This document shows positions 2,191 through 57,587 of a stretch of 64,000 nucleotides of DNA, piece after piece. Origin of the DNA: Chloroflexia bacterium (lineage in GTDB: Bacteria; Chloroflexota; Chloroflexia; QHBQ01; JADMIH01); contig DASVRN010000110.1 in assembly GCA_036388595.1 (NCBI GenBank), positions 8,953-72,952 on the forward strand, given 5' to 3'. The notes under the pieces are model-generated. The model had not been told where the DNA came from. It saw only the letters and a list, made by a program, of their open reading frames with translations, and made no database searches. The translations under genes and the position numbers were made by a program. Position 1 is the first letter of the stretch; each line of letters starts with the position of its first letter.

Positions 2191-4146
<1,956 letters not shown>

Positions 4147-4160
4147 GTGGGGCCGCAACT

Positions 4161-4801: not shown

Positions 4802-4810
4802 CGATACTGA

Positions 4811-4908
4811 CCGACGAGACGTTCGACATGCTGATGGGCAACCAGGTCGCCCCCAGGAAGAAGTTCATCCAAACGCACGCTAAGAACGTGAGGAACTTGG
4901 ATATCTAA
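4811..4908 (+). repeat. 98-bp duplicate of the gyrB 3' terminus (copy of 4049-4146) ending in TAA
   Basis: Near-identical to gyrB codons [31 protein letters not shown]. The three differences are all synonymous. Together with the genuine gyrB end it brackets the MntA/HepT cassette. Confidence 0.9.
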
Positions 4909-4924
4909 GGGGATGTAAATTACC

Positions 4925-12203: not shown

Positions 12204-12483
12204 AAATTTTTGCCCCCTGTAGAAAGTGATGCCTCGCGGGGGATGCCGCGAATGGCCGGATTATAGCACTGATGTTCTGCTGAGTCAAGAAGTGCAACTG
12301 CTTATACACGGCCTTATCAACTCTGAAGTCGCGCGCGAAACCGTTGTGCTCTTCAAGCAGCGTCACAGGAATGCCCAGGTGTTCGGGCAGCGCCAATACA
12401 GTGCCCCCAGATGCAGCGCCCCAGGTTCAATAGAAGCCCAATCGCAAAAAGGGATGAGGGGATGAGCACCCAAAGCCCCGCCT

Positions 12484-12619
12484 TTGTCATTCTGAGCGTA
12501 GCGAAGAATCTCGTCCTCTACCGGGATGGTTCCACTTTCGTTTGGGACTCTGTTGCTGAAGGAAAGGTGGTATTTGGGTGCTGAAGGACGAGATTCTTCA
12601 CTGCGTTCAGAATGACAAG
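12484..12619. repeat. REP/BIME-like inverted-hairpin element, copy A (type 1 arms TGTCATTCTGAGCGTAGCGAAGAATCTCGTCC)
   Basis: About 32-bp arms in inverted orientation with a ~70-bp spacer. It belongs to the same family as the copies at 21968, 22907, 24623, 27480 and 63174. Confidence 0.8.
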
Positions 12620-13162
12620 GGCAGACTTTGTCGCCAGTGATCGGGCTGCTTTTTGTGTGATGGCTTCTACGCGGTACACAATGCTTTCCTCCAGTCCCTC
12701 AGAGCAAGCGCATTCAACCTGCGCCATATGCTCTATTTGCGTTCTGCCGGACTCGTTGCCCTCGTATTTGCTCCTGCACGTAGAGCCTGGATTCCCGTGG
12801 TGGAGAGGGTTAGCTCTTTATTCGTTCGGGACCACCTACCAGCATGAGAAAGAGCAAAATAACAACATTTCTACTGGTGAGTGTTGAGGGTACTCTTGCC
12901 ATGCGTAGTACCTCTATCTGTATGACCATCATACCCCTGGTGGATATCCGTACGGCCTCGACAAACTTATACTATTCGTATGCACCTGACTGGGAACATC
13001 TACCGGCTCACCATTGGCAAGCCAGCAGCGGCAAGGCACCGGGCGTGGGTAGCGGGTAGTGTGCATCGTAACTGGAAAGTAGGACCAGGAACGCGTTCCA
13101 TCTTCCGCGTAGGTTTCGTCTCACAGTTGAGAGCAGATAGTAGGGAGTAGGTCGAAGCAGCC

Positions 13163-15930: not shown

Positions 15931-16527
15931 TCAGAATGAGCCTGTTTTGACTTCCCCCGCACGTTTGAATGTAGCAATTATCACCCCACTTGGTGAAGAC
16001 TTAGCTTCAACCAGCGTATGAGAGGCAGGAATAGTACCTTTATCAAACAAGCGTTTGCCCATACCGAGTACCACAGGGAATATTTTGAGCCAGAATTCAT
16101 CAACCAGATCATGCTGCAACAATGTCTGAATGAGATTGCCACTGCCATGCACCTGCAGGTCGGGTCCCTCTTGTTGCTTGAGCTTTTTTATTTCCTCGGC
16201 AACGTCACCATTCAAAAAGATCGACTTACCCCACTCATGGCTGGTAAGCGTATGCGAAGCCACATACTTTGTTGCCTCGTTTATCGGGTTCTCCCCGCCC
16301 TCTTCTTGAGGCCAGTATGCTGCAAATATCTCAAACGTTTTCCTCCCGAGCAATAGATCAAATGGGCTGCTCATCTGCTCGGTCATTTCCTCGCCAAGGA
16401 ATTCGTCAAAATACGGGACCGACCACCCACCATAGGTAAAGTCACCGCTGGGGTCTTCAGTGGGTCCACCGGGCGCCTGCATGACGCCATCGAGCGTAAT
16501 AAAGGATAGCACAATAATCTTTCGCAT
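15931..16527 (-). CDS. dihydrofolate-reductase-like (RibD C-terminal/YyaP family) protein
   Basis: Full-length 198 aa starting MRKIIVLSFITLDGVMQAPGGP with GRKTFE and VHGSGNL motifs. GC content is clearly below that of the neighbouring genes. Confidence 0.75.
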   Translation of the reverse strand: MRKIIVLSFITLDGVMQAPGGPTEDPSGDFTYGGWSVPYFDEFLGEEMTEQMSSPFDLLLGRKTFEIFAAYWPQEEGGENPINEATKYVASHTLTSHEWGKSIFLNGDVAEEIKKLKQQEGPDLQVHGSGNLIQTLLQHDLVDEFWLKIFPVVLGMGKRLFDKGTIPASHTLVEAKSSPSGVIIATFKRAGEVKTGSF

Positions 16528-16678
16528 AAAGTCATTCTACCACATTGAGCATTCATAAAGCCTGCCCACAATGGTGCTGGGACAGGCTCTTTGTTTTCAT
16601 GGGGTCGCTCAGGTCCAGTCTATATGCGAACTACTACTTTCATTTCTCATCATCCGCCGCTGCTTCTGCGTCACCTAC

Positions 16679-16833
16679 CTTCTCCGGCTCTTTAGTCGCC
16701 ACGCTTTCCTCCCCGGCCAGGAACTCGTCCAGTCCACATAAATAGGGGGTACCGCCGGGTCGGGTTCCCTCTTTTCGCCCGCGGGATAGACGTTCACCAT
16801 ACGGCCCTCTTTGTCGTACTCGTAAATGTAACC
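16679..16833 (-). pseudogene. frameshifted copy of the small gene at 18886..19074 (direct repeat 1 of 2, ~155 bp)
   Basis: About 90% identical to 18913-19068. A 1-bp deletion breaks the frame and the RBS is lost. Confidence 0.6.
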
Positions 16834-17218
16834 CCACCTTGTCACCCACGCTTATTGCCAGCACCCTCCTTTCACTTATCTGCCTGCCCCCAACGCTCCA
16901 TCACCACATTCCCCTTTAACTCCTTCTCTCTACCACCGGCAACCCGCTATTCTTCCATTCCGTAACGACAACTTACCTCAACTGGCACAGACATTGCTTC
17001 CCTACAACTGGGTAGGGCGAGAAACTATTTTCGCGCGTATATTTAGCGTGCTGTGGAGGTCATATGAGAGTACAGGGTGGCGGCAACAATGGCCTGATGA
17101 TGATTGTTATTGGAGTGGTGGTCTTACTGCTCATCGCGCTCGTAATCTGGTTCCTATTCCTGCAACCGCGCTAGCATTGCGTTATGTTGCACTAAAGATA
17201 AGCACAGGAGGCAAAACC

Positions 17219-18814
17219 ATGAGAAAAGGTAAATCTGTAATCGGGCAGGGCATTTTAAGCTACAACGAAGGGGCAAAAGTAGGCTCTGTGAAGGACCTGC
17301 TTATCGGCATGAACAACGACCGCGTAGTGGCATTGCTGGTGGAGGAAGGCGGGCTACTAAGTAGCCCCAAGGTAGTTCCGTTCGAGTTCGTAACTAGCTT
17401 CGGTAAGGACGCCGTGGTAATGACCGATTTGAAGGGCATTATCGCGGTGGACAACTACCCTGAGGCCGACGAAATACTAGCCCGCAACGACAAGCTCCTC
17501 GACAAGAAGGTCTTCACCGAAACGGGTGAGGATTACGGTAAGATAACCGACGTATTCTTCAGCGAGCAGGGTGGCCGGGTGGTCGGCTACGAGGTGTCCG
17601 GCGGCCTAATCGAGAACGTAAAGTCCGGCACTTCCTACCTGCCCCTCGAGGACATTGTGAACATCGGTCCCGACGTGATCCTGATCCGCCCCGACGCGGG
17701 GGATGCTCTCGACGCGCAGGTTGGTGGCATTCAGGGTGCGGTCCAGCAAGCGGGCGACAAGCTCGGCAGCGCGGCTACTCAGGCCAAAGACAAGGCCGGT
17801 GAGGTCGCGGGCAACGTGCGCGAGGCCGCTTCTGCTGCTACCCAGAGTCCCGAACAGGCTGTGATCGGTAAGCGTGCCGCGCAAACGGTCGAGACCAACA
17901 CAGGCAGGATTATCGTAGCTACGGGACAGCGCATCCGGCAGGAGCACCTCCAGCAGGCGCAACAGGAAGACAAGCAGGCCGAGCTTTACGCGGCGGCAGG
18001 TGTCGGCCAGGCGCAGGCGGCGGGTGCCCAGGCAGGCGCGACCCTCCAGCAGGCGGGCGACAATGTGGGCCAGGTAGCCGGCCAGGCCGCCGATACAGCC
18101 CAGGACTGGTGGCACACCTTCACCGCCAAGATTTCCCAGATAACCGACGCCTCGGGCAAGAAGGTCGACGAAGAGCGCACCAAGCAGCGCCTCTCCACCA
18201 TCCAGGATGCGGTCGGCCGCCCTGTAACCAAAGTCATCCTCGACCGCCAGGACAACGTCATCCTCAACCTGGGCGACATCATCACCCACGAAGCGGTGCA
18301 GCGCTCCTACGACGCGGGCATGCTCGACAGTATGCTGGAGAACGTCTATAAGGGCGAGGTTGAGTTCAGCAAGGAAGAGATGCGCGCCCCCGTCGAGGCC
18401 GAGGCTACCGTCGACAAGGCGAGCGGCCAGGCTCAGGTAGTAGACGATCTGGAGCAGAAGGTCGACCAGCTAAAGCAGGAGCGCCAGGATGTCATGGCGC
18501 AGCCCGCCACTGCCTACAAGGAGCAGCAAGACCAGCAGAGCGGCCAGGGGCAAGATGGGCAGCCGCAGGACCAGCAGGACCAGCAGACCCAGCAGTCGCA
18601 GGGCGGCTCACAGGGCGGTAACGGACAAGAGCAACAAGAGCAACAAGAGCAACAATCGGCCAAGCAGTCCCAGGGTAGCAAGCAGAGCCAGCAGAAGAGT
18701 GCGCCACAAATGAACGCTTCGGACGGCGGAAGCGGTGGCACCCTCGCAGCTACCGAGACGGAGACGCACGAGCAAGCCAGCATCCCGAATGAGCAGTTCC
18801 ACCAGGGCGCATAG
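17219..18814 (+). CDS. PRC-barrel domain protein (two PRC barrels) with a long Gln/Ala-rich low-complexity tail
   Basis: ATG at 17219 follows AGGAGG. PRC-barrel-like segments (VIGQGILSYNEGAKVGSVKDLLI; KVFTETGEDYGKITDVFF) are present. The tail contains QQEQQEQQ with (GAGCAACAA)3. Confidence 0.7.
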   Translation: MRKGKSVIGQGILSYNEGAKVGSVKDLLIGMNNDRVVALLVEEGGLLSSPKVVPFEFVTSFGKDAVVMTDLKGIIAVDNYPEADEILARNDKLLDKKVFTETGEDYGKITDVFFSEQGGRVVGYEVSGGLIENVKSGTSYLPLEDIVNIGPDVILIRPDAGDALDAQVGGIQGAVQQAGDKLGSAATQAKDKAGEVAGNVREAASAATQSPEQAVIGKRAAQTVETNTGRIIVATGQRIRQEHLQQAQQEDKQAELYAAAGVGQAQAAGAQAGATLQQAGDNVGQVAGQAADTAQDWWHTFTAKISQITDASGKKVDEERTKQRLSTIQDAVGRPVTKVILDRQDNVILNLGDIITHEAVQRSYDAGMLDSMLENVYKGEVEFSKEEMRAPVEAEATVDKASGQAQVVDDLEQKVDQLKQERQDVMAQPATAYKEQQDQQSGQGQDGQPQDQQDQQTQQSQGGSQGGNGQEQQEQQEQQSAKQSQGSKQSQQKSAPQMNASDGGSGGTLAATETETHEQASIPNEQFHQGA

Positions 18815-18893: not shown

Positions 18894-19074
18894 CACCCTC
18901 TGCCTCTCCTATCTTCTCCGGCTCTTTAGTCGCCACGCTTTCCTCCCCGGCCAGGAACTCGTCCAGTCCCCGGTACACAGGAGGTGCCGCCGGGTCGGGT
19001 TCCCTCTTTTCGCCCGCGGGATAGACGTTCACCAGGCGGCCCTCTTTGTCGTACTCGTAAATGTAACCTCCCAC
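18886..19074 (-). CDS. small conserved-looking protein (62 aa; YIYEYDKEGRLVNVYPAGEK...GLDEFLAGEE), intact copy
   Basis: GTG start 10 nt after AGGAGG. A degenerate duplicate lies at 16679-16833. Confidence 0.4.
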   Translation of the reverse strand: MGGYIYEYDKEGRLVNVYPAGEKREPDPAAPPVYRGLDEFLAGEESVATKEPEKIGEAEGEK

Positions 19075-19699: not shown

Positions 19700-20677
19700 C
19701 TAATCTTCTACCGAGTGGCTGCCGAGAGGCTGGGTGCTGAACTTGCTGCCATTGTACATGATGGTGCGGTTGCGGCCCTCGTCCTTGGCATTGTAGAGCG
19801 CCTGGTCCGCCGCCACGATGAGGGCGTCCTGGCTGTCGCCGTCACTCGGAAAGCAGCCTATCCCGGTGCTGATGGTCATGCGCACGGGGAGGGTCCGGGT
19901 GCCGCCATGGGGCCTGGCGAAGGGACGTGCGGCTACGGCCTGGCGGATGCGCTCCGCGACCTTGAACGCCCCGCTGGCGGTGGTTTCGGGCAAAATAACG
20001 GCCAACTCCTCGCCACCGTAGCGGGCCGCGCTGTCACCCGCGCGTATGTTCTCCTGCACCAGCTGAGCCACCTCGCGCAACACCTCGTCGCCCACCTGGT
20101 GGCCGTAGGTGTCGTTTACGGCTTTGAAGCGGTCGAGGTCGATTATCATCACCGATAGGAAATGGTGGTAGCGCCGCGACCTTGCCAGCTCGGCCTGGAG
20201 CAGGAAGTCCATCTCGCGGCGGTTGTACAGGCCGGTAAGCTCGTCCCGCGTGGCAAGGTGTCTCAGCGACTCCTCGGTGCGCTTGCGGTCGGTGAGGTCC
20301 GTCACTACGGTGACCAGAAACTCCTCGCCCTCGATGTGGATTCGTTGCGCCGAAAAGAGGTTGACGCGAATCTCCCCCGCACTGGTAAGGAACTTTACCT
20401 CTCGTTGGACAGAGCCTTGTTCCTGGACGGCGCGCACCATTTCGGCCCTCTCCTCCGGGTTTGCCCACATGCCGAGTTCCAGCGCGGTCGCGCCGATAAC
20501 GTCGTCCCTGGAGTAGCCGTAGAAGCTCAGGAAGTTGTCGTTGACCTCCAGGAACCTCCCGTCGCTAAGCCGGGTGATAGCCATCGCTACCGGGCTGGAA
20601 CAGAAAGCTCTTGCAAGTAATTCGTTGGAGATACGCGGGGTAAGAATTTCGTCCGCGGGGACACGGTTCGCCGTCAA
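19700..20677 (-). CDS. PAS-domain diguanylate cyclase (GGDEF)
   Basis: N-terminal PAS domain. GGDEF domain with RYGGEEL active-site motif and an upstream RxxD I-site-like region. Confidence 0.85.
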   Translation of the reverse strand: MTANRVPADEILTPRISNELLARAFCSSPVAMAITRLSDGRFLEVNDNFLSFYGYSRDDVIGATALELGMWANPEERAEMVRAVQEQGSVQREVKFLTSAGEIRVNLFSAQRIHIEGEEFLVTVVTDLTDRKRTEESLRHLATRDELTGLYNRREMDFLLQAELARSRRYHHFLSVMIIDLDRFKAVNDTYGHQVGDEVLREVAQLVQENIRAGDSAARYGGEELAVILPETTASGAFKVAERIRQAVAARPFARPHGGTRTLPVRMTISTGIGCFPSDGDSQDALIVAADQALYNAKDEGRNRTIMYNGSKFSTQPLGSHSVED

Positions 20678-21068
20678 AGGCAGGCCCTCCCTGGTTGGCT
20701 CGTCGCATGTTGCTGGAGTTTAATTACGAACGGCAGCCTTGCCAGCACGATTCGGACCTCTGTTCAACCACATTGGACCAGTCGGAATGGGGCGGCGCGC
20801 TGTAGCCCCCTGGTCGCAGGTGTTTACGCATGTTAGTAGTACAGATGAAGCCATGATGTCGCATATTTGCGGGAGCGAACGACAAGAGAGTCATTACAGC
20901 ATTTGGGACCGCGGCCCCACGGCAAAGGCAACCTGGCCGAGGCAGTTTTCCTCGCACCCTGTTGTATATATTAGCTGACACAGGATGTCAGGTATGATGT
21001 GCTATTGTTGCAGAACGTGGTGTTTCCGGCACATAGTTTCACAAAGTGGGTGAAGGAGGTGAAAGTTC

Positions 21069-21967: not shown

Positions 21968-22184
21968 TGTCATTCTGAGCGTAGCGAAGAATCTCGTCCT
22001 CCAGCACCCAAATAGCCCCTTTCCTTTTGCCAGCAACGTACTGTGGTGCTACACTGCCTCACTGCCTCACTGTTGCAGTGTAGCACTGCTGTAAGGGTGC
22101 TATGGTGCTACGGTGCTGTGGTGCAATAGAAAGGGGTAACATCTAGGTGTAGGGCGAGATTCTTCGCTGCGCTCAGAATGACAA
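21968..22184. repeat. REP/BIME-like inverted-hairpin element, copy B (type 1 arms) with nested internal inverted repeats
   Basis: The arms TGTCATTCTGAGCGTAGCGAAGAATCTCGTCC and GGGCGAGATTCTTCGCTGCGCTCAGAATGACA lie between convergent genes. Confidence 0.8.
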
Positions 22185-22906: not shown

Positions 22907-23362
22907 TGTCATTTCGAACGTAGTGAGAAATCTCGTCCCTTATCAGGATGTTACAGCTTTCCTATGGGACTCTGTTGCTGAAGGACGAGATTCTTCGCTA
23001 CGCTCAGTACCTAGCTAACGAAGGAATGTCAGCTAATACAGGCACATCAGGTGGCAGCCGACGCCCCACGATTGAAATCGGGGGCTACACTTTACCAAGT
23101 CCCACAAGGGGACTCTCCTCTACCCACCTACTCTCTAGAAAGCGGTCCTGATGCATGAAGGCAGTCCCGTAGGGACTTTGCAACGTGTGTAGCCCCCGAT
23201 TTCAATCGTGGGGCGTCGCCTGGCACCACACGTGGCTTCATGGGGCTTCTCACACGCATGGTGCCCTGTTGGCTGACATTCCTTCATTAGCATGGTACTC
23301 AGAATGACAAGATGGGTTTTGGGTGCTGAGGAGCGAGATTTCTCACTGCGTTCGAAATGACA
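22907..23362. repeat. composite REP/BIME-like element (type 2 outer arms) interrupted by a nested ~290-bp MITE
   Basis: Outer arms TGTCATTTCGAACGTAGTGAGAAATCTCGTCC and GAGCGAGATTTCTCACTGCGTTCGAAATGACA. The inner type 1 arm is split into CGCTCAG|...|TCAGAATGACA by an insertion. Confidence 0.7.
23008..23295. mobile_element. nested MITE-like insertion with ~25-bp terminal inverted repeats (TACCTAGCTAACGAAGGAATGTCAG / CTGACATTCCTTCATTAGCATGGTA) and a probable TCAG target duplication
   Basis: It interrupts a REP-like arm. The flanks reconstitute the uninterrupted arm sequence. There is no coding capacity. Confidence 0.5.
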
Positions 23363-24463: not shown

Positions 24464-24622
24464 GTCTTGGGTCGTAACACCGCACAGATACGACACTGGC
24501 AACTTGCACCGCAGAGACGCAGAGAGCCTGCCCTGAGCGAAACCGAAGGGACGCAGAGGGTGCGCAGAGATAAGGTAAGGGTTTAGCGGCTCTATTAGGA
24601 TGCGTGGTACCCTATTCCCCTT

Positions 24623-24756
24623 GTCATCCTGAGCCGTTGCGAAGGATCTCAGATGCCACGCCCACCGCTATTTGGAACCTTCCGCACCAGTGTGCCTCAC
24701 GCTCAACAGCACCCCTCCCCAACTTCTTGAGATCCTTCGCTGCGCTCAGGATGACA
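24623..24756. repeat. REP/BIME-like inverted-hairpin element, copy E (type 3 arms TGTCATCCTGAGCC...GAAGGATCTC)
   Basis: Inverted arms. It is itself flanked by inverted GCAGAGA-type heptamer arrays at 24508-24578 and 24836-24862. Confidence 0.75.
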
Positions 24757-24979: not shown

Positions 24980-25495
24980 TTGGACGTCGCTTCAGTTGTG
25001 ATACGTGAAGCTCGCACCTCAGATGCTGCGGGGTGCCTTGATTTCCTGCGCGAGATTACCGCCGAACCTGACATCCTGATTCCTGCCTACCCGGACGAGT
25101 GGGACTTCCCTGTGCAGGATGAAGAGGCTTTTATCCAGGACATGCTGGCTACGCCCAATTGCCTGATGCTGGTCGTGGAAGCCGAGGGGAGGATAGCGGG
25201 CATCCTGACCTGTCACGGCGGCAAGCGGCGCGCTGTGCAACATGCAGTGATGCTCGGTATCTCGCTACACAAGGACTACCGCGACCGTGGACTGGGCCAC
25301 CAGTTGATGCAACGCGCTATAGATTGGGCCGGGGCTACCGGCATCACACGTATCGAGCTATTTGTTTACGTCGAGAATGCAAAGGGCATCCACCTGTATG
25401 AGAAGTTCGGCTTCAAGGTCGAAGGCCGCCGCACCCGTGCCTACTACCATCATGGTAGGTACATAGACGACCTGGTTATGGCGCTGTTGCTTTAG
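24980..25495 (+). CDS. GNAT-family N-acetyltransferase
   Basis: The acetyl-CoA-binding motif region (RGLGHQLM...GITRIELFVYVENAKGIHLYEKFGF) is present. Confidence 0.8.
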   Translation: MDVASVVIREARTSDAAGCLDFLREITAEPDILIPAYPDEWDFPVQDEEAFIQDMLATPNCLMLVVEAEGRIAGILTCHGGKRRAVQHAVMLGISLHKDYRDRGLGHQLMQRAIDWAGATGITRIELFVYVENAKGIHLYEKFGFKVEGRRTRAYYHHGRYIDDLVMALLL

Positions 25496-25660
25496 ACGAT
25501 GGACGATAGACGATGGACGATGGGAGACCAAAACGCAAAGACGCAAAGAACGCAAAGGACGCGCAAAGAGGATTGTTGTTGGGAAGGGTGCTGACCTCTA
25601 CTCAGTCCTCAGTCCTCAGTCCTCAGTCCCATCGTCCATCGTCCATCGTCCATCGTCCCC
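25496..25660. repeat. STRR-like heptamer tandem-repeat hairpin array: (GACGATG)n ... (CCTCAGT)4 (CCATCGT)4
   Basis: Tandem 7-mers. The outer arrays are inverted complements. A conserved core GGATTGTTGTTGG sits between them. Confidence 0.85.
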
Positions 25661-26678: not shown

Positions 26679-26825
26679 GAGACGGAAACGCCAAGACGCA
26701 GAGACGCCAAGGCCGCGCCAAGTTTAGGATTGTTGGAAAGAGTGCTGCCCTGTACCCTCTACCCACTATTCAGTCCTCATCACTGCTATCGTCCATCATC
26801 CATCGTCTGCCCTCTATCGTTCTCG
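26669..26825. repeat. STRR-like heptamer hairpin array (GACGATA/GACGCAGAGACGCCAAG ... CATCGTC) with a GGATTGTTGG core
   Basis: Same architecture as 25496-25660. The two arrays bracket plsX. Confidence 0.75.
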
Positions 26826-27479: not shown

Positions 27480-27620
27480 TGTCATCCTGAACGCAGTGAA
27501 GGATCTCAGATGTTCCTCTTATCGCTGCGGTGAACCTTCAGCACCCCACCTTTGTTGCTCAAGGTTCGACGCGATCCGTGTGCCACTTTCTTGAGATCCT
27601 TCGCTACGCTCAGGATGACA
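27480..27620. repeat. REP/BIME-like inverted-hairpin element, copy F (type 3 arms TGTCATCCTGAACGCAGTGAAGGATCTC)
   Basis: Inverted arms between divergent genes. Confidence 0.75.
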
Positions 27621-27741: not shown

Positions 27742-28803
27742 ATGAAGATACTCTCTGTTGTAGGCGCACGGCCCCAATTTATCAAGGCTGCTCCCGTGAG
27801 CCGGGCCATGTCGAGGGCAGGGGTCGAAGAGGTGTTGTTGCACACGGGCCAGCACTACGACCCTGCGATGTCCCAGGTCTTTTTCGCGGAACTGGACATT
27901 CCGGCCCCTCGCCACAACCTGGGAGTAGGTTCCGGCTCTCATGCAGGCCAAACGGCTGCCATGCTGGTGGGCATCGAGCAAGTGCTGCTGGACGAAAGGC
28001 CTGACTACCTGCTGATATACGGCGACACCAACTCCACGCTCGCCGGGGCGTTATCGGCGGCGAAGCTGGGCGTGCCGGTGGCCCACGTCGAGGCGGGGCT
28101 GCGCTCCTACAACCGTGCCATGCCGGAGGAAATCAACCGCGTGGTGGCCGACAGCCTCTCGCACCTGCTCTTCTGCCCGACAGCCGTGGCCTCGGCCAAC
28201 CTGCAACGCGAAGGCATCACGCGCGGGGTGTTCGTGGTCGGTGACGTGATGTACGACGCTATACTCGACTCTCTGCCACGAGCCGAGGCGATTGCTCCTT
28301 CGCTCCTGTCGCGGATTGGGGTGGAGAGCGGCGGGTACTTGCTGGCGACGGTGCACCGGGCCTCTAACACCGATGACCCGCGCAACCTGGCGAGCATAGT
28401 AGGGGCGCTGAGCGACTCGGGCGGGCCTGTGGTCTTCCCGGTGCACCCACGGACCCGGAGAGCGCTGCAACAGGCAGGCGTGGTCCCCGGCGAAAACGTG
28501 CGGCAGATAGACCCGGTGTCGTACCTGGAGATGGTGGCGCTGGAGAAGCACGCCCGCAAGATACTCACCGACTCCGGAGGCGTGCAAAAAGAGGCGATGT
28601 GGCTGGCGGTGCCCTGCATCACCATGCGGGATGAAACCGAATGGGTGGAAACGGTGGAACTGGGTTGGAACACCCTCACCGGCACCGACCCCGCCCGCAT
28701 ACTGGCAGCCATCCAGGCCCCGCGCCTCCACTCTACCCCGCCCGACGTGTACGGCGATGGACACGCGGCGGAGAACATTGTGAACGTGATATGCAACGCG
28801 TAA
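27742..28803 (+). CDS. wecB: UDP-N-acetylglucosamine 2-epimerase (non-hydrolysing)
   Basis: MKILSVVGARPQFIKAAPV...HTGQHYD...HVEAGLRS. Full length. Confidence 0.85.
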   Translation: MKILSVVGARPQFIKAAPVSRAMSRAGVEEVLLHTGQHYDPAMSQVFFAELDIPAPRHNLGVGSGSHAGQTAAMLVGIEQVLLDERPDYLLIYGDTNSTLAGALSAAKLGVPVAHVEAGLRSYNRAMPEEINRVVADSLSHLLFCPTAVASANLQREGITRGVFVVGDVMYDAILDSLPRAEAIAPSLLSRIGVESGGYLLATVHRASNTDDPRNLASIVGALSDSGGPVVFPVHPRTRRALQQAGVVPGENVRQIDPVSYLEMVALEKHARKILTDSGGVQKEAMWLAVPCITMRDETEWVETVELGWNTLTGTDPARILAAIQAPRLHSTPPDVYGDGHAAENIVNVICNA

Positions 28804-28885
28804 CACGTAACACGTAACTCGTAACGCGTAACATCGAGGTGTCATTCAGGAATTACGAGTTATGCGTTACGAGTTACGAGTCACC
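28796..28885. repeat. STRR-like heptamer hairpin array: (CGTAACA)n inverted against (GTTACGA)n
   Basis: It overlaps the wecB stop codon and lies between wecB and the aminotransferase gene. Confidence 0.8.
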
Positions 28886-40163: not shown

Positions 40164-40236
40164 TGGACGATAGACGATGGACGATGGACGATAGCGTATC
40201 CTACCATCGTCTACCGTCCATCGTCCGTCGTCTATA
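40164..40236. repeat. STRR-like heptamer hairpin (GGACGAT)n/(CATCGTC)n lying between oppD and oppF
   Basis: An inverted heptamer array in the 86-bp oppD-oppF spacer. Confidence 0.8.
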
Positions 40237-55580: not shown

Positions 55581-55750
55581 GACGAAACCGCAAAGGCGCA
55601 AAGAGCGCAAAGGTACGCAGAGATTAGGTCGGTGTTCTAACAAGAGGACCGGAGTACGACATCATGTACTCTGGTCCTCTTACTACTCTCCAAACCTTAT
55701 TCTTAACCTTGGCGCGTCCTCTGCGTCTCCGCGTCCTGGCGTTTCAACTC
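55581..55750. repeat. STRR-like heptamer hairpin array (CGCAAAG)n / (CTTTGCG-like)n with a central 16-bp stem-loop
   Basis: Between the tdk 3' end and the ogg 5' end. Confidence 0.75.
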
Positions 55751-57135: not shown

Positions 57136-57222
57136 ATTACGAATTACCAATTATCCGTTACGAACCACTAATTACCACTTCCGAAATACCTACGTAATTC
57201 GTAATTCGTAATTAGTAATTCG
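57136..57222. repeat. STRR-like heptamer hairpin array (AATTACG)n / (CGTAATT)n
   Basis: An inverted heptamer array between rpmE and rpmA. Confidence 0.8.
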
Positions 57223-57223
57223 G

Positions 57224-57496
57224 CTACGCAGTAGCCGTAGCGCGCTCGGCGTACACGCTGACCCGCTTCCTGTCCTTGGTGGCGTTCTCGAACTTGACGT
57301 AGCCATCCACGAGCGAGAAGAGGGTGTGGTCGCGGCCGAGGCCCACGTTGTTGCCGGGGTGGATCTTGGTGCCGCGCTGGCGCACGATGATGCTGCCGGA
57401 GCGGACGGCCTGTCCATCGCCGCACTTCACGCCGAGCATCTTCGGATTGCTATCGCGGCCGTTGCGGGACGAACCTACACCTTTTTTATGAGCCAT
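57224..57496 (-). CDS. rpmA: 50S ribosomal protein L27
   Basis: [19 protein letters not shown]... Highly conserved. Confidence 0.95.
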
Positions 57497-57517
57497 TGCT
57501 TTCTCCCTTCGGGGAGA

Positions 57518-57587
57518 GTGGTTAGTGGTTAGTGGTTAGTGGTTAGCAAAGAGCTTCTAAACACTAACCACTAACCACTAACCACTC
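57518..57587. repeat. STRR-like heptamer hairpin (GGTTAGT)4 / (ACTAACC)3 between rplU and rpmA
   Basis: It is followed on the transcribed strand by a CUCCC-CGAA-GGGAG hairpin that includes the rpmA SD sequence. Confidence 0.85.

Follow-up and report, generated by a model that had tools for sequence, protein, structure and literature searches.

Inverted hairpin doublets in the window

The stretch of DNA analysed here, referred to as the window, comprises 64,000 nucleotides from a Chloroflexia bacterium (GCA_036388595.1, contig DASVRN010000110.1, positions 8,953 to 72,952). Between its genes lie short elements, each consisting of two arms in inverted orientation, and each arm can be written as a hairpin with the layout TGTC-AT-NNN-GA-[short helix, GNA loop]-GA-NNN-AT-C. 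The arm pattern CATYYYGARCGNAGYGARRRATCTC, with up to three mismatches permitted, was found 12 times in the window (0.01 expected) and the terminal tag TGTCATYYYGAR 13 times (2.6 expected). The arm matches fall at six intergenic loci, namely 12485–12617, 21968–22183, 22907–23362 (composite), 24622–24756, 27480–27620 and 63173–63310, at each of which an inverted arm pair with TGTCAT outermost encloses a spacer of 72–160 nt. The doublets are strand-symmetric, being found between divergent, convergent and tandem genes alike, and every copy sits between called or Pfam-supported genes. An initial annotation, made from the sequence alone, had described these features as intergenic inverted hairpin doublets resembling repetitive extragenic palindromic (REP) sequences and bacterial interspersed mosaic elements, present in seven copies. 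Their nature, their intergenic position and all of the listed loci were confirmed; the number is six, the composite having been counted as two.

The left arm of element 1 (12485–12512, + strand) has the TGTC tag, an ATTCT/AGAAT stem, GA on both sides, a GC-GTA-GC inner part and a C tail; the right arm (12590–12617, − strand) has the same stem type with AC..GT as the inner pair, and with the shared flanks the doublet extends over about 12471–12630. In element 2 the left arm (21968–21995, + strand) is separated from the right arm (22156–22183, − strand) by 160 nt. The left arm of element 4 (24622–24650, + strand) is of the ATCCT/AGGAT type and has one additional base in the inner loop, its 8-nt inner part reading GCCGTTGC; the right arm lies at 24729–24756 (− strand). 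Element 5 is made up of an ATCCT/AGGAT left arm (27480–27507, + strand) and a right arm at 27593–27620 (− strand). Element 6 has an ATTTC/GAAAT left arm (63173–63200, + strand) and a right arm at 63283–63310 (− strand). It is flanked by a malate synthase gene and a gene of the isocitrate-lyase/phosphoenolpyruvate-mutase family; the initial annotation had placed one copy in an aceB–aceA spacer.

Element 3, the composite at 22907–23362, is one doublet with an extra solo arm that is itself split by an unrelated miniature inverted-repeat transposable element (MITE). The outer arms (22907–22934, + strand; 23335–23362, − strand) are of the ATTTC/GAAAT type. The solo arm, of the ATTCT type and on the − strand, has its inner part at 22987–23007, is interrupted after CTCAG and resumes at 23303–23309, the outer part (23298–23309, CTCAGAATGACA) including one copy of the CTCAG that is duplicated at 23003–23007 and 23298–23302. 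The 290-bp MITE between them (23008–23297, no strand assigned) possesses the terminal inverted repeat TACCWWGCTAAYGAAGGAATGTCAGC. Since the MITE is nested in the solo arm, the arm is older than the insertion. The MITE is present as a single copy in the window and contains a perfect 29-nt inverted repeat, GTGTAGCCCCCGATTTCAATCGTGGGGCG, at 23062–23090 and 23187–23215.

Compensatory change within the arms

The window arms all carry the TGTC tag and all have a C directly 3' of the stem. Neither tag nor C is paired, and the 5-bp stem opens in every case with A-T followed by T-A. Their stems are of three types, ATTCT/AGAAT, ATTTC/GAAAT and ATCCT/AGGAT, in which the differences are paired exactly as the initial annotation had described; the inner pair covaries too (GC..GC versus AC..GT) and the loop base is free. 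That annotation took the paired differences as a sign of selection on a small GA-containing hairpin and asked for many more copies to be aligned. One genome per species (185,579 genomes) was scanned with a motif in which every variable position was replaced by N, giving at least 119 loci, with 156 matches listed. Among these 156 matches, all three free stem pairs are Watson-Crick in 137, with at least nine stem types; 152 have a Watson-Crick inner pair, and any of A, C, T and G can be the loop base. Across 48 distinct arms, pairing holds in 97% of the cells and each of the four free pairs shows changes on both of its sides. This level was not reached in any of 500 shuffles, and slid registers are 11–57% paired. 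The covariation thus grew stronger with hundreds of copies rather than being lost, and the hairpin is kept by compensatory change in both the outer stem and the inner helix.

Conservation extends to the tandem G·A, which is rarely swapped for Watson-Crick pairs. Among 265 TGTCAY hairpins near genes of the Ssn clade (described below), GA/GA was found in 233 and the Watson-Crick alternative GA/TC in four. The G·A/A·G internal loop stands in a Y-GA-R context and the tail reads CTC. In loci retrieved through the protein and not through the DNA, the two GA dinucleotides enclose a helix 2 to about 20 bp long and of arbitrary sequence, with differences in inner segment length that are not multiples of three. 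A set of 196 hairpins defined by structure, with the flanks left unconstrained, had T (77%), G (83%), T (85%) and C (85%) as the four bases before the stem and C directly after it in 166 cases (85%); the stem opened with AT in 122 and with AC in 31. The corresponding positions of the Neisseria hairpin repeat NTS are those on which cleavage and binding depend (PMC11893778). The sequence GCGNAGC is an exceptionally stable mini-hairpin context in DNA.

Among the matches listed, the arm motif occurs in Chloroflexota, Acidobacteriota, Bacteroidota, Nitrospirota, Saccharibacteria and Omnitrophota, and also in Planctomycetota, Verrucomicrobiota, Bacillota, Proteobacteria, cyanobacteria and others. 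Planktothrix, Hymenobacter, Pedobacter nototheniae and Silvibacterium bohemicum are among the hosts. Its neighbours are unrelated housekeeping genes: the 150 arm-adjacent open reading frames (ORFs) of at least 100 amino acids matched 192 Pfam families, with a maximum of three recurrences in the top 25, and no transposase, Y1 type included, was among those 25 families. For 149 arm pairs the flanks held no target-site duplication and showed just some short additional inverted complementarity. A pair of distant arms in one locus (L050) was considered as the ends of an autonomous element; these arms bracket groES-groEL and are therefore two separate intergenic copies.

Two further arrangements of the arms were seen. 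In 49 of 461 distinct arms, tandem copies of the first 10–13 nt, GTCATYCTGA(GC), plus about 7–10 nt are found just upstream (for example L038, 381–437; L219, about 1100–1205; also L143, L206 and L216). The break point of these half-arms is constant, at the boundary between the G·A and the inner helix, and could be a replication or nicking hot spot. In a Bacteroidaceae metagenome-assembled genome (MAG; L010, 3458–4240), at least eight 105-bp units stand head to tail with one G·A-type arm each; these have an ATGTT/AACAT stem and all one orientation, unlike the usual inverted doublet.

A GIY-YIG gene between such arms in other genomes

The initial annotation had drawn an analogy with REP sequences recognized by RAYT or IS200-type transposases. 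No RAYT or tnpA gene was seen in the window, the ORFs of which were not scanned one by one against Pfam, and the gene that the arms flank in other genomes proved instead to be a single-domain GIY-YIG gene of the Ssn family. In two of the 119 arm-selected loci listed, from Saccharibacteria (L001) and Chloroflexota (L101), a GIY-YIG gene of 93–96 codons lies exactly between inverted arms. These are the only two of the 119 with the gene within 8 kb, and it is from the side of the gene that the association becomes clear. Inverted arms were found on both sides in all eight loci checked by hand (L001, L101 and six independent look-ups, one of which shows the arms in variant form). A metagenome scan, made by protein alignment, yielded 66 evaluable loci with arms on both sides in 33, on one side in 26 and on neither in seven; 245 arms were detected in the DNA of these metagenome loci, compared to 3.7 in shuffles.

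The flanked proteins comprise 93–112 amino acids with PF01541 as the sole Pfam match (E-value 5e-15), and have thousands of relatives at 60–90% identity across phyla. They show 47% identity (E-value 3e-26) to the Neisseria gonorrhoeae orthologue of SsnA, where a homologue of the Ssn family is expected to reach E < 1e-10, and the catalytic residues Y6, Y17 and E64 of N. meningitidis SsnA, mutated in the published study of that enzyme, align with Y10, Y20 and E67 of the arm-flanked protein, which are invariant in the alignment of the clade. In the PDB the arm-flanked protein is closest to 1ZG2, a UPF0213 protein, and it matches no model of NCBIfam or PADLOC. SsnA of N. meningitidis is a 94-amino-acid single-domain GIY-YIG protein (cd10448) and a site-specific endonuclease of single-stranded DNA (ssDNA) (Chenal et al., Nat Commun 2025, PMC11893778). 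Its hairpin target, NTS, is bound only in the form of ssDNA; double-stranded DNA (dsDNA), RNA and the reverse strand are not bound. The cut falls a few nucleotides upstream of the hairpin, and cleavage depends on the three bases that precede the palindrome, binding on the C that follows it (PMC11893778). In Neisseria the Ssn system restricts transforming ssDNA. The ssn genes are typically flanked by repeats of the Ssn-related motif (SRM), and the NTS-ssnA-NTS layout was likened by the authors to REP/RAYT domestication (PMC11893778).

Classical CGTC hairpins, which differ in kind from the G·A arms but have the CGTC/GTCAT start in common with them, flank more distant homologues of the arm-flanked protein (43–51% identity) on annotated replicons of Rhizobium, Neisseria, Aeromonas and Novosphingobium. 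The hairpin in Neisseria and Aeromonas is GTCATTCCCGCGCAGGCGGGAATC, the dRS3/NTS repeat, and those in Rhizobium and Novosphingobium are related perfect hairpins. The canonical G·A type of arm is found with a homologue of 66% identity on a Planktothrix plasmid, and it flanks WP_083616022.1 of plasmid p1 in Planktothrix agardhii No.66. G·A arms go with proteins at least 53% identical to that of Chloroflexota and perfect stems with those at 51% or less, so that the type of hairpin tracks the protein clade.

Elements 4 and 5 of the window align to both ends of a gene-bearing unit of other Chloroflexia (L101/L131/L132), arm plus flank being 92–95% identical; for the right arm of element 4 the values against the unit ends are 86–95%, and for that of element 5 they are 92–94%. 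What these two elements do not contain is the gene of roughly 290 nt. Four Chloroflexia assemblies carry the gene-bearing copy in synteny, at 80–85% nucleotide identity, which indicates that the gene is at a stable locus there, the gene-less doublets being dispersed. In L131 the ssn gene is located between RadC and a gene for 289 amino acids.

In several unrelated genomes (L120, L121–L124, L219) an MmeI-type IIL restriction-modification gene is followed immediately downstream by the ssn gene and its arms, and on the Planktothrix plasmid the ssn gene also adjoins drmA of DISARM. This neighbourhood may point to a link with defence islands.

The window holds a number of other repeats. Intergenic tandem arrays of heptamers are present at 25493–25658, 28795–28833, 40164–40192, 41836–41960, 42033–42061 and 57193–57586, with the units (GGACGAT)13, GAGTTAT, CTCAGTC, CCATCGT, AACACGT, CGTAATT, AGTGGTT and CTAACCA; we take these to resemble the short tandem heptamer repeats of cyanobacteria. 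Repeats of the AACGCAAAGACGCAAAG type occur at 25531–25557, 26686–26712 and 55586–55612, and some of the heptamer-array or AACGCAAAGACGCAAAG-type repeats are common to the window and the Chloroflexota MAG 'PEA bin11' (L014, L029). Direct repeats at 16665–16833 and 18899–19068, 94–96% identical over about 170 nt, bracket an ORF at 16994–18814, and a further pair (4040–4150 and 4802–4912) is 93% identical. Just upstream of the malate synthase ORF, the region 60264–61314 contains repeated units of 54 nt and roughly 150 nt with a GC skew as high as 0.24, and looks like a coding region for a repeat protein.

Interpretation and comparison with known systems

Taken with the published properties of SsnA, these results make it probable that the six loci are gene-less doublets of the Ssn-related hairpin motif, the arms of which would be folded as ssDNA and nicked by an Ssn-family GIY-YIG nuclease encoded elsewhere. 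The arm strand, read 5' to 3' from the outer end inwards, would fold once it became single-stranded, that is during replication, repair or the uptake of transforming DNA. By homology with SsnA, the nuclease would bind the arm through tag, tail and hairpin and would nick the ssDNA a few nucleotides upstream of TGTC, just outside the doublet. Since the arms are inverted, two cuts are predicted, on opposite strands and at the outer ends. The gene-bearing arm-ssn-arm form occupies a conserved locus in the related Chloroflexia, and the copies in the window look to be internally deleted and dispersed derivatives of it; gene-less doublets together with an arm-flanked ssn gene parallel REPINs and their RAYT. 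The initial annotation left both ssDNA and RNA as the relevant form. Because the homologue SsnA binds neither RNA nor dsDNA (PMC11893778), ssDNA is favoured and the RNA half of that proposal is probably to be dropped.

Several observations weigh against the nicked-doublet interpretation. The window itself was found by tblastn to hold no ssn gene; the best match (20564–20776, E-value 0.096) was rejected because it has a stop codon and 27% gaps and lies at noise level, and the cognate enzyme of this genome is therefore deduced from related MAGs. The published SRM pattern, HGTCWYN(0-2)YYVSBRHN(0-5)WNVSBRGN(0-2)RNCYNB, has no true match in the window or in L001, L101, L126, L131 and L219, a single match at 16440 of the window being at chance level (0.95 expected). 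It does match the flanks in Rhizobium, Neisseria and Aeromonas, and fails on the window arms because of the G·A positions, the pattern being an operational search aid. In N. meningitidis, SsnA lost its activity when the sequence of the stem was changed and its structure kept (PMC11893778), and the free covariation of the stems in the G·A clade sits uneasily with this; it suggests that the G·A motif and the flanks are what is recognized there. No empty site or insertion polymorphism was found among the assemblies compared, the intergenic lengths in those that share the flanking proteins (L133–L136) being identical. Lastly, single arms have DNA folding energies of −0.9 to −2.7 kcal/mol with z about 0 by nearest-neighbour models, and the whole doublet folds as one long hairpin (−38 to −53 kcal/mol) that would compete with the small ones. 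These models give no credit to sheared G·A pairs or GNA triloops, and the case for arm structure rests on covariation, since the energies lend the small hairpin no support.

The four alternatives to a nicked doublet differ in how they account for the arms. Were the primary function at the RNA level, the arms would be RNA hairpins serving as mRNA stabilisers, processing sites or terminator-like structures with the G·A as a protein-binding motif. Sheared G·A pairs in tandem are a classic motif of RNA, single arms fold somewhat better as RNA (−3.8 to −9.2 kcal/mol) than as DNA, and element 6, lying in an operon spacer between the malate synthase and isocitrate-lyase-like genes, would be transcribed; many REPs have also been argued to act as RNA elements (Di Nocera et al. 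2013, PMC3733652). However, the RNA folds have z near 0 for three of four arms, and Rfam offers no family, neither at the gathering threshold over the whole window nor at E-values up to 10 for the element at 21968–22184, where merely chance miRNA-like matches in the spacer were returned. The GCGNAGC context is known for its stability as DNA, the doublets are strand-symmetric and stand in divergent, convergent and tandem gaps, and the protein family that goes with the arms binds ssDNA but does not bind RNA (PMC11893778). A primary role in RNA is for these reasons considered unlikely, and a secondary RNA effect on adjacent genes may exist. Descent of the arms from a degraded protein-coding gene or repeat protein has next to nothing to recommend it: ORF callers do translate the arms, as VILSEAKNL-like peptides such as 'VILSVAKNL' or as 'DSSLRSE' tails on annotated proteins, but both orientations occur within about 100 nt, the variation obeys base-pairing and not codon positions, the inner length changes are not multiples of three and all copies lie between genuine genes. 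The initial annotation had named this origin as one that would undo its proposal, and on this point the proposal stands.

Two further alternatives involve a transposase. If the elements were ordinary MITEs, a DDE transposase encoded elsewhere would read their arms, as dsDNA, in the role of terminal inverted repeats, with the GIY-YIG gene as a passenger. The elements are indeed short, non-coding and dispersed with terminal inverted repeats, and the genuine MITE nested in element 3, with its 5-bp target duplication, indicates MITE activity in this genome. The 149 arm pairs without a target-site duplication, the lack of a transposase in the Pfam families listed for the 150 arm-adjacent ORFs and the likeness of the arm across many phyla nevertheless render this explanation very improbable; moreover, a transposase that binds dsDNA would leave the covariation within the arm, the conserved G·A mismatch and an inner helix of 2 to about 20 bp unexplained. 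Mobilization of a classical REP/BIME by a RAYT, an IS200/IS605-type HUH tyrosine transposase, would fit the layout of inverted intergenic hairpin pairs with no target duplication, but is hardly to be expected given a tag that is TGTC and not GTAG, the absence of a Y1 transposase from the listed families of arm neighbours, an arm-flanked gene of the GIY-YIG type, and the earlier observation that no RAYT is flanked by CGTC-type repeats (PMC3733652).

An extension of the nicked-doublet interpretation, offered tentatively and with rather less than even confidence, is that the G·A arm/Ssn clade reads structure (TGTC, the A-T/T-A base of the stem, the tandem of sheared G·A pairs and the C on the 3' side) and not stem sequence, and that the arm-gene-arm cassette is a minimal selfish unit still moving between phyla. 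Reading of structure would leave the middle stem and inner helix free to be almost any sequence. Continued movement would explain the closely similar 27-nt motif and 95-amino-acid protein (at least about 60–75% identical) shared by Chloroflexota, Acidobacteriota, Saccharibacteria, Verrucomicrobiota and cyanobacteria.

The SRM pattern misses the G·A subfamily entirely, and so the published proportions of Ssn genes with SRMs (71% on one side, 42% on both) are probably underestimates; counts of SRM-rich genomes are likewise probably too low. A large cross-phylum part of the Ssn world, in Chloroflexota, Acidobacteriota, the candidate phyla radiation and cyanobacteria, is apparently uncatalogued. 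The natural variation can be used as a mutagenesis map, in which the tag, the first two pairs, the G·A/A·G and the 3' C are fixed and the three stem pairs, the inner helix and the loop base are free, and this bears on the engineering of Ssn enzymes as ssDNA tools. Annotation also routinely turns the arms into spurious short ORFs and C-terminal tails, and gene calls would be cleaner with the arms masked.

The closest known systems include the SRM/NTS repeats, which are hairpin-forming repeats of 20–50 nt in many copies. Like these, the window-type arm forms a hairpin with a defined orientation, given by the (H)GTC tag on its 5' side, an AT at the start of the stem and a C after the palindrome; it has many intergenic copies, often as inverted pairs, and in related genomes brackets a single-domain GIY-YIG gene of roughly 94 codons. 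In contrast to SRM/NTS, a tandem G·A/A·G internal loop, itself conserved, breaks the stem. The three pairs in the middle of the stem are free to covary, the length of the inner helix ranges from 2 to about 20 bp, and the hosts include Chloroflexota, Acidobacteriota, Saccharibacteria, Omnitrophota, cyanobacteria and others.

The superfamily of CGTC-tagged REPs, which includes dRS3 of Neisseria and RPE-4/6 of Rickettsia, often has TGTC as the tag, a stem that starts with A-T and head-to-head dimers, and its members "apparently lack a dedicated transposase" (PMC3733652). The window arms share the unpaired TGTC tag, the A-T stem start, the head-to-head dimers, the intergenic position and the lack of an associated transposase. 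CGTC-1 to CGTC-4, however, have an uninterrupted stem of 8–9 bp, a loop of 4–5 nt and a CCA tail, where the window arm has 5 bp, G·A/A·G, at least 2 bp, a 3-nt GNA loop and a CTC tail; since stem, loop and tail differ, it fits none of the four families. The 2013 survey dropped repeats with more than one mismatch and listed no CGTC repeats for Chloroflexi (PMC3733652).

With the REP/REPIN-RAYT systems of Proteobacteria the doublets have in common their dispersed intergenic inverted hairpins, a repeat-flanked nuclease gene at a conserved locus and no target duplication. They differ in that the enzyme is a GIY-YIG protein and not an HUH/Y1 transposase and the tag is TGTC and not GTAG; REP/RAYT pairs are moreover lineage-specific, whereas phyla differ little in the G·A arm and in the protein that goes with it (at least about 60–75% identity). 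DDE-derived MITEs are similarly short and non-coding, with terminal inverted repeats and apparent internal deletions of a gene-bearing unit, but the window elements have no target-site duplication and no transposase, and their ends are conserved as structure and not as sequence alone.

The repeats were published in 2013 and the class of enzyme in 2025, and the system is accordingly less novel than the initial annotation supposed, its kind being already known (PMC3733652, PMC11893778). No description of the G·A variant was found in PMC3733652 or in the main text of PMC11893778, and no follow-up publication was found. What appears to be new is the G·A subfamily, together with the range of phyla in which it occurs and the failure of the published pattern to detect it. 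By most defining features, the window elements are SRM or TGTC-tagged REP doublets.

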